A DNA stretch of 64,000 nucleotides from Microthyrium microscopicum (taxonomy: Eukaryota): positions 1,832,627 to 1,896,626 of the forward strand of contig MU004230.1 of the NCBI GenBank assembly GCA_010405405.1. Direction: 5' to 3'. Below the pieces are notes generated by a model that was not told the origin of the DNA, searched no databases, and saw only the letters and a program-made list of their open reading frames with translations. Below, one piece after another: positions 4,714 to 63,423 of the stretch. The translations under genes were made by a program, and so were the position numbers. How positions within the stretch are numbered: the stretch's first letter is position 1; each line of letters opens with the position of its first letter.

Positions 4714-6439
4714 CTAAGCTCCAAGACCTTGACCTTCCTCGAGCTTTTGAGCTCCATACTTCTTGAGTCGGATAGCATTGATGTTGATGAATCCACCTGT
4801 CAAATATTAGCAAGTATGGTCAAATCAATGCATTGAGACATACTGGTATCAGTGGGGCTGAAATCAATCAAGCTGTCCATGGAGGACTCCTCCTCAGAGT
4901 ACAGCTTCTCGGTTTCGGAAGATCGTCCAGTAATGAAGGTATTCCCCTTGTACAGTCGTAGGCGGACTTCACCGTTCTAGAAATTGTTAGTAAAGCCACA
5001 ACGGTACAGCAGTTGGTAAATAGTACGTACCACTCGCTTTTGAGAGAAGATGACGGAATTCTCAACGAATTCGCGCTCGGGAGAGAAGTACCTGATTCAA
5101 TCAGTATCAGATGTTGAGAGATGTCCTTTGACAAAAAACTCACAATCCATTGTAGAGAATCTCCGACCAGGCGTGGGTCACAAACTGATCACGGAGAGAA
5201 CGGACTTTGCCGTCAAGAACCAGACCTTCTAGATCCAAGTGGGCTGCTCGAAGCTAAGAAATGTTAGCCGAAATTATGAAAAATAAGGAACGCAAAGTAA
5301 AACCCACAATTGTCATAGCAGGAGAGTCATAGCATCCTCGTGACTTGATACCGATGAATCGATTCTCGACAATATCAATTCGGCCAACACCATGTTTTTT
5401 GCCGATGGCATTCAAGGCAATGAAAAGGTCGAGGCTGTCGGTGATGTCTTTGCCATCAGCAGTCAGCTTGACTGGGATTCCCTTCTCGAATTGAATAGCG
5501 ATATCCTGTGGGGTGTTTGGAGCAGTAATGGGATCGTCAGTACTGTTTCTCGGATTAGTACATACATTCCAGGTACCACAAGTTGACAAATGGGGTTGTA
5601 TACCGAGTCCACATATCTGTTGGTGGTGGTTGAGAAGGATCCTCGAGCTGTCCGCTCTCATAGCTGCAATGAGCAATGTTGTCATCCATAGAATAAGGTT
5701 TAGCCTTGGTGGATGTGACTGGAATGCCAGATTTTGCAGCGTAGTCGAGCAAGTCGTTACGGCCCTGGAATCTCTCGAAGAACTCCTTCATTCGCCATGG
5801 AGCAATGACCTTGATCTTTGGGTCGATGGTGAGGAATGCCAATTCAAAACGAACTTGATCTGTAATTCGTTAGGCTTCTTTTCATTTCGCTGGCGAGCTT
5901 TAATTTTTACCGTTTCCTTTGCCAGTGCAACCGTGGCTAACGTATTGGCCTATATTATCATTAGCGACTGTTTCCCCAGCGAAGTATGATTCGACTTACA
6001 GCCTTCTTCAGCAGCAACTTTCATTTGTGCTCGAGCAATGACTGGACGAGCGAGACTTGTTCCGAGCAAGTATGTACCCTCATATTGAGCATTACATTGC
6101 ACCGCACGGAAACAAAGCTCCTCGACAAATTCCTTGCGGAGATCTGTGATGACCATCTTCAAAGCTCCTAATAAAGAGTTAATACAATAACAAACATACA
6201 GAGCGGTGAGTCATGTACGCACCAATCTTGGCCGCTTTGGAACGAACTTGGTCCCAGTCTTCTTCCTATGTTTTTGTTAGCTGAAGACTTCGGCAAAATT
6301 GGCTGAGATCAAAATCTACCTGACCAACGTCAGCTAAGAAGCATACGACCTCATAGCCACTGTCAATCAACCATCGGAGGATGGTTGAAGTGTCGAGACC
6401 TCCAGAATATGCGAGACAAACTTTTCCTTTCGATGACAT
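4714..6439 (-). CDS. ARG1: Argininosuccinate synthase, 10 exons
   Basis: The spliced product begins [18 protein letters not shown] and contains [18 protein letters not shown] and [19 protein letters not shown]. It ends [14 protein letters not shown]...GLGA*. Nine GT-AG introns: 6266-6319, 6168-6222, 5950-5999, 5860-5910, 5543-5603, 5254-5307, 5092-5143, 4977-5030, 4797-4843. Confidence 0.96.
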
Positions 6440-47817: not shown

Positions 47818-49611
47818 TTTAGCAACGCATTACTTACGGCTGATTGAAAAGTGCATTTCTAGGCGTTTATTTATACCAGATAGAACTTACCAAAACCAAA
47901 TGGTGGTAAAAGATAGAAATAGTTACGCTCAGCTATTGCTCGAGTTTAGTGGCTCTAATTTGATGTTTTGTAATGCATTCTTCTCCAAATCAGTCTACTA
48001 GCCCAAGGGCCCTTGGGCACCTCGTGTGCAACTTGATGAGTAGCGCTTCCTGACGATAATGTACAAGTGATTTATGTACAGTCCCAAAACTCCTTTCAAA
48101 TGCTGCATTTCGAGACATTATGTTATACCCATTCTTCCTGCTGTCGACACATCTTTGAATTCGATTGTAGCTTTTAAGCGCTCAGAGCCGTCGAGCAGGC
48201 CCTCCTCAACCCTCTCTCCGTTGTGCCGGTACCACATCCTCGAACTCGTCCGTTCCAATTGCCTTCAGCGTGTATACATCTATCCAGTCACTGCATTAGC
48301 ACAATTCCCTTGCGCTCCGCCACCAGCGACTTACAAGCAGCCATCGTGAAGCCCACTATCGATACACCGACGAGTGCATTTTTAAACAGATATGGCCGAC
48401 GTGCGCGGATGAGCGAAGCGCCTTGTCGGAATGTTCGATCGTAGTAACTTGAGGGGCGGATTCTGAAGGCTATGTTAGTCGCTGCGGTTTCGATCTGGCT
48501 CGGAGGGTACGCACGATCCGTAAGGCATGTCGATTGAGTTATATGTGCATTTGATAGTGGAGTGGAAACAAGCTGATTTGTTTACTGGAAGCTGGGAGTG
48601 TCTGGGTGATCTTGCTCATTGATGCCAGGACGTTAAAATTGAGTCGCAAGATGTTGGCCTGGTTGCCTTAGCGCCTTGGCTTGCCACGTTTTCTACCTCG
48701 TGCCATCGAGCTCGTGGTCTGCAGGAACAACACTTCATTGAATAATCGGATATTTATTGGTCTAGGCACTGTTGCATCAACTCAGACCCCATTGTTGATA
48801 TACAAATACACGTTCCGTAAACCTCGTGCCGTGCCTATGGGCCGAGAAGTGCAACAGCTACTATCCATTTCTGTCATGGCGAACCTAATTGATGGGCAAC
48901 AGAGGTATCAACTAGCAATGCTACGAGCATTGAATTCCAGCACAAATGGCATCCCAGCTGGATTCGTTCAAGCACAGTTGGGCACCAGTGAGCTGGGACA
49001 CGATAATTGGCCCGAGTACAAGCAACCACTTTCTACTAGCGACCTTCGCCTTTGAGCGCCTCGTAGTATTACGGCATTGATGAACTACTGGACTAACTTG
49101 AGAGGTAGCCAACCGACTGACAGACTATCAACGGAAATGGCGTTGCGACGTTACTATAGAAGGGAAGTGACGCCCTAATGCGGCACCGCGAGCACATCTT
49201 CGTGCAGGAAGTATGCTGCCAGCCAGCCATACGTAGATGTCCCTTCAGGATATAATAGTTCTGACGATATATGCAGTATCCCGATATTGTGGGGTACAAT
49301 TGCGGCTCCGAATTCAAAAGGATCAATGGAAAGGTGCACGAAGAACGCTCTTACCAGATAGGGCAATGTGAGATATAGACCACGAGAGCAATTGCCCAAA
49401 CGAAACACTGGACGTTTGAGCCCTCGAGATAGCGATGTTGCTGCTGTCACAGTGCTGACCAGATGGCTCATGCGTACTAACCCGTGGTAATGAGCCTCCA
49501 ATGTTTATATGCTCTTGGCTCCTTTGCTACTTCATCTCCTATTCTCCAAACTCCTACTTTCCAATGTATTAACAGATCCAACACCAAACCCGATCAAGAA
49601 CAACGCCTACG

Positions 49612-52255
49612 ATGGGAAGAAATGAAGCTGATACTGGCTTGGCAGTCAGCCACGAGAAGGTGTCAACAGCTACCAAATTGGGCATATCAGCAGAGTCTTT
49701 CCAGCGTCGAGTGGTTGTGGAAGGGGACGATCAACTGAACCATACTATCAAGAAGCGACATTTACAGATGATAGCGATTGGTGGCTCAATTGGATCTGGG
49801 TTATTTGTTGGATCAGGTGGCGCTTTATCCAAGGGTGGACCTGCTTCCCTTGTACTTGGCTTCGCCATCATTGGTGTTTTGCTCTTCAACGTTGGTCCGT
49901 TCAATGTCTACCAAAGCTGGCATCTTCCCATTGAGTATGATGTTTGCCATCTAGTAACGTTTTACATCGACTGTTCACCTTCCCATCGAGTGCGCAAAAG
50001 ATCGAGCATCTTATCACACTGGACGCGAAAGAAAACACTTGATGATGAATCGTTATAGATAGTAGACATCGCATTTAATGGAAGGGCAAGTTCTAATATA
50101 GATATGGGACTGTGCTAAACCCCATTCTAGTCTACGCTCTGGGCGAGATGGCGGTCTTGTTTCCCGTTGCCGGCAGTTTTTATACATATTCAGTACGATT
50201 CATTGACCCAGCTTGGGGCTTTGCTATGGGCTGGAACTATGTTTTTCAATGGTAAGATATCCCAAAGAACTCGATGGCTCCCATAGGATGTGATGGGATC
50301 TCATCACGAAATACTGACAAAGATCTAGGGCGATCGTACTTCCCTTAGAACTGACCGTGGCTGCTCTAACTGTCGGCTTCTGGGGTACCAACGTCAACGT
50401 TGGAGTCTGGATCACAGTGTTCTTGGTGATTATAGTCGCTCTCAACGTGTTCGGTGTCCTTGGCTACGCTGAAGGAGAATTTTGGGCCTCAATTCTCAAA
50501 CTCAGTGCAGTGGTCATCTTCTTGGTTATCGCAACCGTTCTTGTATCTGGAGGAGCACCGCCTAACAATATGGGGAGATTCTGTTCTACGAATCCTAATA
50601 TCACAAGCTGTTACCGAGAATACTGGGGCACCAGGAATTGGGTCAATCCAGGGCCATTCCGGAACGGCTTCCAAGGATTCTGCTCGGTCTTTGTCACTGC
50701 AGCTTTCGCCTACTCTGGAACAGAACTGGTAAGTTTTCCCCCAAATAATTATCTCATCTTCTTGGCGGAAAACCAATCCTGGAGTTCAGAGCTGAATGCT
50801 ACGATATGTTATGGTAGCCATCGAATGCTATTGGAGCATCGAATACGTGACATTGTCGAACTAAACCGCGAAAAGTAAGACTGTTATGGTTTTTCCTCAA
50901 CAGACCGCAACAAGATGTAATCTGATAAACTCGTTGGCTACCATGACACTCGATGGCTATCACATGATGCTAATCAAGAATGCTAATCAACATATTCCAG
51001 GTTGGACTCGCGGCGTCGGAATCAAAAAATCCAGCAAAATATCTGCCTGGCGCAGTCAAGCAAGTATTTTGGCGCATCATCCTATTCTATGTTCTTGCTC
51101 TTTTCTTTATCGGTTTGCTGGTTCGATCAGATGACGATCGGCTACTTGGTAGCGGAGGACTTATCGACGTCAATTCTTCTCCATTCGTCATCGTCGCGGT
51201 CAACGCAGGTCTGAAGGGCTTTGATTCGTTTATCAACGTGATCATATTGATCTCTGTTGTTTCGATAGGCATGTCAGGTGTATACGGCGGGTAATACTCC
51301 CTTGTGTTGAACCACATATCTGGAAGACACCTGATGGAAACGAAAATTACCATATTTCCCATCGCACTCCATGGCTACCATAGAATGCATTCTTAATCGA
51401 GTGCTATGGTTCCCACCGAATGCGATGGGTACTTACGGTTCGGGTCTATTCAGGCATGTAGGCTCTAATCGTGATCTTTATACTGACAAATTCCAGATCT
51501 CGTTGTCTGACTGCTCTTGCTGATCAGGGTTTCGCTCCAAAGCTATTTTCCTATGTCGACAAAGCAGGTCGACCTCTTCCTGCAACGGCTTTAATTCTAG
51601 CATTTGGCCTGTTAGCCTATGTCAACATAGCAGCTGCAGGTTCAGTCATCTTCGACTGGCTTTTGGCACTTAGTGGCCTCGCCACCCTCTTCACCTGGGG
51701 ATCGATCTGCTGGGCTCACATCCGTTTCCGAAAGGCTTGGAAGCTACAAGGTCATACTCTTGATGAGATTCCCTTCAGAGCTGCCTGGGGTGTCTACGGA
51801 TCGTGGCTTGGCCTCATCGTGATATTTTTCGTCCTCCTTGCTCAGGTATGTCAATCCCACAGTATACCCCTGATAAAGCAGAGTCGATGGCGGGCATCGG
51901 CATTGATGTGGCCAGGGCATTTATTTTGCTACTTGTTGAATTTGTCTGGATCTTTCGCCCTGAGACTAACTGATCGTAGTTCTACGTCGCTATTTCTCCA
52001 ATCGTACTGCCAGGAAAACCATCTCTGGCACCTCAAGAGCGAGCTCAAAGCTTCTTCAAGGCTTACTTAGCGCTTCCAGTAGTATTGCTATTCTACGTCT
52101 GTGGTTCGCTATGGAAAGGATCTCGCATAATGCGTGCTTCAGACATTGACATAGACACTGGTCGGAGAGTGGTTGACTGGGAAGTCATTAACAAAGAACG
52201 GCAACGTATAGCCAGTATGGGCTTTGGGAAAAGACTATATCACAAGCTCTTCTAA
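49612..52255 (+). CDS. Yeast amino acid transporter (YAT/Gap1-like) permease, 6 exons
   Basis: Contains KRHLQMIAIGGSIGSGLFVGSG, YALGEMAVLFP, FVTAAFAYSGTELVGLAASE, KQVFWRI, YVDKAGRP and DIDIDTGRR. Introns 49895-50130, 50252-50328, 50729-51000, 51291-51496, 51846-51979. Confidence 0.95.
49911..51909. repeat. Intronic arrays of a degenerate 19-bp palindromic unit CCATCG-N4-CGATGG-N3
   Basis: Units start at 49928, 49947, 49964, 49983, 50047, 50066, 50262, 50281, 50818, 50941, 51359, 51378, 51394, 51413 and 51894. All lie inside introns of the permease. Confidence 0.75.
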
Positions 52256-52434
52256 AGCGGCTAGAAAAAGCGGCTAGAAGATAATCAAACCAATACTATT
52301 ATAGGTCTCAAGCTAAAACTGTCAAGATTTTGTCTCTAGTATCTTGAATCCAAGAAAATATTAGATGTGAAACAAGCAGTTTCTTATAATTAAGGTAAGT
52401 TGATCCAGTAAACTTCCAAAAGCTTTCTAATCAA

Positions 52435-53386
52435 CTATTTCCATGCGAGAATCTCAGATTGCAGTGACTGGAAGTGTTAGTGTATGAATGCGATGGAGAA
52501 TTGTCTATCTTGTGGCTGCTAGCACAGATCGTAACGCACAGGGGAATCTTACCGCATACCAAGCATCTTCCGTTGCCGCCCATTGCTCTGCAGCACGCAT
52601 TGCCTGTCCAATTTCCTCCTCAGAGATTCCAGCATCCAGCCAGCTCTGGCGCACAGGGTCTCCCTCCTTCAATTGCCCAGTGACTCGCCAAGCGAGGAAC
52701 TGTCGAGTTTGCTTCCCAGCAAACACCCTCGCTCCGGCGCCAATTTCGACTTTACCTCCATCAACATCGTAGCCAACACTGCGAAGAAGTGCCGGCATGA
52801 TCGTTCCCGTAGGATCTGCTGGAGGAGCGCCTTTAGCCAGCGCTTTGCGCGCATTCAGTGCCCATAAGCGATCAAGGTCGAAACTTTGTGGGTAAAAGTG
52901 ATGGGCCACTCCATCCCGCGAAGCAAAGACTCCTCCTGTCTTCAGTACTCGTCGTAGTTCCTTCAAAGCTTGGCGTGGGAGGTCTGGTGGTGGGATATGT
53001 CCAAATAGCTGGGAGCAAAACACAACGTCAAAAGTGTCGTCAGGAAAGGAGAGCCCTTCCAGGACATTGCCTAGCTCGAAAGTGACAGAACCAGGTCCTT
53101 CAGTAGGGATTTCCGCATCAGCAGCTAACGTCTTTGCCTTCTGGAGAACATCCTCTGAGATGTCAATGCCGATTATTGTGCCAGCGCTAGCGTGTTTGAC
53201 CAGTCCTATGGTGATGGAGCCCGGCCCACAACCAACATCGAGAATATGGTCCGTCTTTTTGATATGTGGTAAGAGAAAGGCGGCATCTTGTTCCGCCTTA
53301 CGAACTTCGTGAGTTGCAGTAGTGTATTTTGAGTGGCCTTGTGTATAACTGTGCTGCCCACCATCTGCACTATTCATGGTTGCCAT
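52435..53386 (-). CDS. Class I SAM-dependent methyltransferase (UbiE/Methyltransf_11-like)
   Basis: Motif I ILDVGCGPGSIT, plus GIDIS, FPDDTFDVVF and LRRVLKTGG. Intron 52468-52552 gives the end WYA|SLQSEILAWK*. Confidence 0.9.
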
Positions 53387-63065: not shown

Positions 63066-63423
63066 TCACGAGCTTCAAGACCATCAAATTCTACTTAGAA
63101 AGCGCTCGGCTCAGTCGACTGAATTTGTGCAAGGTGTAGTGTATGCTTCAGCCCATCGCACTTGACAAGGTGGCCATCTGAGGCGATGGAGGAAAGCATG
63201 CTCCAAGTGCATCTTGTTAACGTGGCGATCCTGCCTACCTGAGTAGAAACCCATCAACAATCACTACTCCAAAGATGAACAACATGGCATCCTCAAACTA
63301 TCAGATATCCATCAACGTCCCGGAGACCAGTTTGTTTATCGGATCTTTGCATTTTAGAGTAACTCGCCCGATATGTTTATGTCTTGGGGCAGTATATCAT
63401 CCGGACAATTGGCGGCTCCCACC

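Follow-up and report, generated by a model that had tools for sequence, protein, structure and literature searches.

All five introns of an amino-acid permease gene of the fungus Microthyrium microscopicum carry copies of a palindromic unit, and we consider it probable that these are transposon-derived DNA, which entered the gene by two routes, the birth of new introns and the invasion of existing ones. In the window analysed here (64,000 nt of contig MU004230.1) and across the genome we observed three element families, A, B and C, and established their anatomy, the ages of the permease introns, their accurate splicing, the clustering of the elements and a cassette common to the families. The palindrome would be the arm repeat of old non-autonomous mobile elements of M. 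microscopicum. Family A would have inserted into exons at three new positions, now introns 2, 3 and 4, leaving the protein unchanged, and then have decayed to differing degrees, and a family-C MITE would have inserted into each of the pre-existing introns 1 and 5 and likewise decayed. The repeats would now be passengers that are spliced out.

The permease gene and its palindromic unit

Removal of the five introns leaves a 572-aa open frame (Table 1), the best relatives of which are INDA1-type permeases (56–68% identity); exon 3 is identical to a database protein assigned to Microthyrium microscopicum. The same five introns were recovered by a custom spliced aligner, and contigs of an RNA-like run, taken as RNA by guess and from its splice joints, skip all of them with GT..AG joints, while none of the five is skipped in two DNA runs. 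The introns and sizes of the original prediction (236, 77, 272, 206 and 134 nt) are thereby confirmed; most other introns in paralogous permease genes measure 44–64 nt. Low-depth unspliced contigs of introns 1 and 4, possibly pre-mRNA or DNA, also occur in the RNA-like run. Upstream of the gene, at 49160-49275, the same run, and only this run, contains a joint that skips 114 nt and whose ends, as read, are not GT..AG.

Table 1 Features of the permease gene, with positions in the window
Feature	Position	Strand	Description
Amino-acid permease gene (YAT/INDA1-like)	49612..52256	+	6 exons, 572 aa, intact; PF00324 E 3.6e-142
Intron 1	49895..50130 (236 nt)	+	apparently ancient position, CDS nt 283, phase 1
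Putative fold-back MITE relic (family C-like) in intron 1, decayed and almost full-length	49899..50110	.	units 49928, 50066; half-units 49983, 50047
Intron 2	50252..50328 (77 nt)	+	position apparently new (CDS 404, phase 2); family-A copy, much shortened; units at 50262 and 50281
Intron 3	50729..51000 (272 nt)	+	position apparently new (CDS 804, phase 0); family-A copy with rearrangement; units at 50818 and 50941, also half-units
Intron 4	51291..51496 (206 nt)	+	position apparently new (CDS 1094, phase 2); introner-like family-A copy of full length; units of the cassette at 51359, 51378, 51394 and 51413
Intron 5	51846..51979 (134 nt)	+	apparently ancient position, CDS 1443, phase 0
Putative family-C MITE arm in intron 5	51866..51938	.	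half-unit, unit 51894, terminal inverted repeat ending ~51938

The palindrome is enriched in each of the five introns, as had been predicted, most weakly in intron 5. Six of the ten unit matches in the window (≤2 mismatches) lie within the 925 nt of the permease introns, where 0.06 would be expected, and with a weight matrix the enrichment over dinucleotide-shuffled introns is significant for introns 1–4 (p=0.0005, 2000 shuffles). The matrix was trained on 252 units from other loci that had been chosen with the consensus of the original prediction, so that this test is only partly independent. The single unit of intron 5 is weak by the matrix (p=0.04); scored as a 19-nt junction, it gives p=0.001 and 14.8 bits, against at most 2.7 bits in 71 control introns. 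The further claim of arrays mostly at 19-bp spacing needs qualifying: there are 1.5–4 units per intron, and the spacings in intron 1 are 55, 64 and 19 and not a regular 19-nt series; Tandem Repeats Finder reported none of the five introns. A lone upstream copy proposed at 48703 scores below 9 bits and is unsupported, and the sole site above 9 bits outside the permease gene in the window, two decayed units at a distance of 21 nt at 63153-63189, had been missed.

Genome-wide, the perfect palindrome occurs 179 times, against 2 for a reversed control, and the unit with at most one mismatch 854 times, against 59; none of the perfect copies lies in the permease gene. A common genome-wide repeat, also found outside introns, had been named beforehand as an outcome that would speak against a special role in this gene, and this is largely what these counts and the presence of units in dispersed elements amount to. 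None of 71 introns from orthologs and relatives contains the unit, and its core pattern has no exact match in the viral contigs and prokaryote genomes searched; it may resemble bacterial REP feet. Rfam gave no meaningful match in 48000-53000, and thus no known snoRNA or riboswitch.

Elsewhere in the genome (G000), one intron of a minus-strand gene at L176 (~6000-6350, C1:3.65 Mb) holds ~14 tandem 19-nt copies of the unit and a second intron of this gene ~5, so the unit can expand into a 19-nt minisatellite. Tandem blocks with a period of 110–150 nt and paired units in each (L037:4500-5450, L038:1730-2080, L039:970-1650) fall outside the assignments to A, B and C, and a cluster of five strong units at C5:1081433-1081790 (L254), matched by none of the three profiles, is probably a further family.

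Proposed intron birth and intron invasion, and a common cassette

Family A is a family of ~223-nt introns with their own donor, branch point and acceptor. Intron 4 matches at least 39 other genomic places with 72–91% identity (40 scored of 61 candidates), and the set analysed contains 35 distinct full-length copies, intron 4 included. We fetched 29 copies, and 23 of them can be aligned over the whole length between donor and acceptor, as ~180–245-nt GT..AG introns in unrelated genes; the six others, which were shortened, internally duplicated or irregular, were excluded. In a loose test that covers 120 nt, the reading frame is open after removal of the intron in 21 of the 23 copies, compared with 2 of 23 unspliced, and in both failures a second intron directly follows. 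The splice signals of all 23 lie in one orientation, their flanks have only G|G in common (16/23) and no longer duplication, and their ends show no terminal inverted repeat, no target-site duplication and no 5-bp duplication. Pairwise identity averages 65% and reaches at most 83%, and near-identical copies were not seen, which fits a decayed and inactive family. At the centre lies a ~70-nt cassette of four units, which forms a hairpin; 4 of 18 pairs show any two-sided change, and the covariation term is -0.02, hardly any signal. This cassette is the best-kept part of the family (85% versus 71–74%), which could be due to ascertainment or to function.

When introns 1 and 3 were compared directly with the genome, they retrieved only themselves, so that profiles were needed. 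A family-A profile built without the permease gene matched intron 4 over model positions 1–222 with 152 bits, and also intron 2 (E 2.4e-5) and intron 3 (E 1e-4); introns 1 and 5 were unmatched. With the cassette and splice signals masked, the likeness to family A remained strong for intron 4 (z=16) and intron 3 (z=4.5), was weak for intron 2 (z=2.3, p=0.03) and was not significant for introns 1 (p=0.91) and 5 (p=0.07); a replacement of these two old introns by family A, which we also considered, is unsupported by the masked values. Marks of introner-like elements (ILEs) are found in family A, namely whole-intron similarity, high copy number, canonical splicing, apparently gained positions and ends free of inverted repeats and target duplications. 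Introns 3 and 4 also exceed ordinary introns in length (272 and 206 nt) and in the stability of their fold (both z -4.3), unlike intron 2 (77 nt, z 0.2), which is unstructured, as is intron 5. Introns 1 and 5 have neither a gained position nor family-A ends.

Some family-A copies deserve mention in their own right. At L185:6128-6561 (C4) and L184:5871-6227 (C13) copies stand back to back, acceptor immediately before donor, with no exon between them, and are candidates for two-step splicing. Among the permease paralogs, the one at L077 (C7) holds a 145-nt copy that has lost most of its cassette and the one at L065 (C5) a compact group of long introns whose units have decayed. In the consensus, the donor region (1-8) can pair with ~201-208, just before the branch point, and positions 152-185 form a second short hairpin 3' of the cassette that is weakly like two joined B ends (p=0.02).

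The ages of the permease introns were read from 80 metagenome loci in which introns were mapped by the custom spliced aligner. The 24 orthologs used are intron-bearing members of the ortholog clade (SH-aLRT 99) with at least 60% identity (60–69%); the other mapped loci, left out here, either lack introns (many are probably transcripts) or are more remote or incomplete. An intron is present at position 283 (intron 1) in 10 of the 22 orthologs that cover it and at position 1443 (intron 5) in 18 of 24, and these are ordinary introns of 48–85 nt. None of the 24 has an intron at 404, 804 or 1094 (introns 2–4), and one has an intron at 405, 1 nt from the position of intron 2; all five positions are absent in 10 paralogs. 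Introns 2–4 thus appear to occupy new positions and introns 1 and 5 ancient ones, with "new" judged from orthologs as distant as 60–69% identity. Since the family-A likeness of intron 2 outside the cassette is weak and an ortholog intron lies 1 nt away, we keep the alternative that intron 2 may be an old Microthyriales gain that was later invaded.

Other perfect units sit in two dispersed elements, B (236 nt) and C (213 nt), with ~40 scored places each, inverted ends (CTCT.. and CAACC..) and a common 11-nt core, and the unit is the arm repeat of both. The pattern of these ends occurs at 171 sites, compared with 3 in the control. Among the copies whose ends are readable, 10 of 16 in B and 7 of 17 in C are bordered by perfect 5-bp target duplications (8 and 7 of 24 copies each were left out because their ends had decayed), and three more C copies have 6-bp duplications. 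Terminal inverted repeats and target-site duplications thus mark B and C as MITE-type elements. The B and C copies that were read fell outside A-type introns. A 1.33-kb element (L266:205-1560, C3:2831404-2832759) is bounded by inverted ends of the B type and a 5-bp duplication, and its interior is AT-rich and RIP-like; it has no Pfam match in six frames and no second copy, its only other match being AT-rich DNA, and may be a dead longer relative. No transposase was recognised by eye among the long ORFs in C3:670-770 kb. MITEs are described as non-autonomous TIR DNA transposons in PMC11282704, and B and C resemble them in being short and non-coding, in their inverted ends, target duplications and arm repeats, and in their relics in introns 1 and 5; they stand apart in the sequence of their ends, in duplications of 5 bp (some 4 or 6 bp) and in having no partner transposase among the sequences searched. 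On a superfamily with 5-bp duplications and on insertion hotspots, nothing specific was found in literature listings.

Intron 1 consists almost wholly of one element, which aligns to C positions 16-198 and folds as one 212-nt hairpin (z -4.6). Its C-profile score of 53.3 compares with background maxima of 27.6 (61 kb of the window) and 23.1 (66 control introns); it also matches B, with 46.0, and its family assignment is therefore approximate. Intron 5 scores 36.1 against C, above the background maximum of 27.6, and its terminal 28 nt alone about equal the background (19.9, maximum 19.7). The ends of both relics have decayed so far that, by eye, no target duplication is readable. These scores and the intron ages support the reading that introns 1 and 5 would be pre-existing introns invaded by a MITE-type element.

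The three families have a cassette in common: the first and the last unit lie 54 nt apart in A, in both B arms and in the left C arm. The A–C alignment scores 55.3, against a maximum of 40.4 in 1000 shuffles, and the A–B alignment is marginal (47.4 against 44.2). The A–C similarity is mostly cassette and could reflect convergent, putative binding sites. The elements also cluster. The 45 loci with perfect units on contigs C1–C3 form 7 close pairs, compared with 0.69 expected, and in five cases an A copy has a B or C element at a distance of at most 3 kb, compared with 0.52 expected, a tenfold excess (40 x 80 places, uniform null). Several such introns occur in each of the genes at L176, L181, L183 and L185, which were selected because they had hits; most introns of the MFS gene (L181:3500-7000, C3) and the OPT gene (L183:4900-7800, C14) carry the unit or family-A sequence, and the loaded positions of the OPT gene are common to none of six paralogs. 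An unselected 200 kb of C5 contained no family-A match and about five B/C relics. Because clustering is a property of these element families, the original prediction was right that five loaded introns in one gene are not drift.

Origin of the repeats and competing explanations

By analogy with DNA transposons in general, the 16-nt palindromes at 19- and 54-nt spacing would be putative transposase-binding sites of the MITE arms. The simplest origin of family A would be an intron that captured one MITE arm, and hence its long hairpin. The family may then have spread like other fungal ILEs, on the sense strand, at G|G sites and without target duplication. We propose a most likely RNA-based route, reverse splicing or R-loop insertion, because the single orientation, the G|G sites, the seamless insertion and the back-to-back copies fit spliceosome-linked movement; such a route would favour the same or a nearby transcription unit and therefore re-entry into the same gene. 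It leaves unexplained why MITEs landed in the same genes, for which either permissive loci or cassettes that attract the transposase may be responsible.

The latter thought leads to a different reading, in which the transposase of the MITEs moved family A at the DNA level by binding the common cassette and delivered new copies beside existing cassettes by local hopping or homing. The common 54-nt cassette, the best-conserved part of A, the co-location of A with B and C (5 versus 0.52), the similar decay of the three families (identity to consensus 0.78 in A, 0.85 in B and 0.83 in C) and the weak likeness of the 3' hairpin of A to a B terminus all point this way. However, the ends of A bear neither a terminal inverted repeat nor a 5-bp duplication, all 23 aligned copies lie in one splice orientation, the co-location could equally stem from a shared preference for permissive loci, and neither the long ORFs of C3:670-770 kb nor the 1.33-kb element yielded a transposase; we regard DNA-level movement as rather unlikely. 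Intron birth can also be denied altogether, by taking all five introns as old, or old within the lineage, with MITE-like DNA inserted. What we propose for introns 1 and 5 is exactly this, but in 23 unrelated genes the likeness to family A extends as far as the donor and the acceptor, which PMC12130899 gives as a criterion that excludes secondary insertion, and none of the 24 orthologs or 10 paralogs has an intron at the positions of introns 2–4, so that this reading is improbable for the gene as a whole.

The original prediction had offered, besides a locally spreading, introner-like element, an array of regulator-binding sites and an RNA structure controlling splicing. A function of the units in this transporter, possibly by co-option, would agree with their presence in every permease intron, with the stable folds of introns 1, 3 and 4 (z -4.3 to -4.6) and with the unspliced contigs of introns 1 and 4. 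Yet all perfect copies lie elsewhere, unrelated MFS, OPT and other genes carry the same load, introns 2 and 5 are unstructured, the covariation term is -0.02, and the unspliced contigs may be pre-mRNA or DNA. We consider these two options unsupported and a function very improbable, since the unit is genome-wide, lies in dispersed elements with target duplications and is absent from the 71 introns of orthologs and relatives. The introner-like option gains support for introns 2–4. The five introns would not be the product of one system or one type of event, because introns 1 and 5 are ancient and invaded by a MITE-type element.

Relation to known introners and meaning of the finding

The closest counterparts are the ILEs of Dothideomycetes (Collemare et al. 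2013, PMC3609843; Collemare et al. 2015, PMC4457414; van der Burgt et al. 2012 as cited there). Family A works like them in most of the marks tested, recent activity excepted: as in those accounts, its copies are whole introns in unrelated genes, over-long, with a stable hairpin, at new positions and decaying by shortening. PMC3609843 and PMC4457414 also describe repeats inserted into ordinary introns, and several ILEs per gene, namely two in one gene and four across orthologs of three species; decayed, inactive ILE families are described in PMC4457414. In contrast, family A comes from an order not covered in these accounts, its copies are far more diverged (mean 65%, maximum 83%) with little compensatory change, its cassette is common to MITEs, some genes hold at least six related introns, and the unit expands to 19-nt minisatellites. 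The MITE-derived introners of algae (Huff et al. 2016, via PMC11282704 and bioRxiv 10.1101/2022.06.06.494994) likewise tie an intron-forming element to DNA transposons, but as described there the introner is the MITE and a splice site comes from the duplication, whereas A brings a donor and an acceptor of its own, and its one MITE part is an internal arm. The symmetrical sister (stw)introns of Hypoxylaceae (PMC8469720) have internal symmetry, palindromes, seamless insertion, cropped derivatives and no flank duplication in common with A; they differ in having another palindrome and a terminal rather than central symmetry, and MITE relatives are not part of that description.

Fungal introners are characterised in 10.1101/2022.06.06.494994 as lacking TSDs and TIRs and probably RNA-based, with ascomycetes an outlier, and a later survey leaves ~72% of introners unclassified (PMC12130899); its supplementary table gives 0 introner families for M. 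microscopicum. Intergenic homologs of introns are reported from Zymoseptoria in PMC5647799. In a literature search that was not exhaustive, we came across no study that connects a fungal ILE with MITEs through a common internal cassette and none on introners in the genus Microthyrium, and a search for the species together with transposable elements gave unrelated papers only.

Behind one motif present in all introns of a gene there can thus be two histories, those of intron birth and of intron invasion. A published screen can also score a genome with a decayed introner family as zero. Our data hint at a possible descent of fungal intron-spawning elements from transposons of the cut-and-paste type, and the cassette common to A and the MITE-type elements, together with the clustering, offers a concrete candidate cis-element and target rule. 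It is conceivable, though we would not expect it, that family A is an ascomycete introner that arose from the arm of such a transposon and is still handled by its transposase, with binding to the cassette bringing MITEs as well as new introns to the same genes until these were saturated. If this were true, fungal ILEs would gain a DNA-transposon pedigree and a targeting rule.
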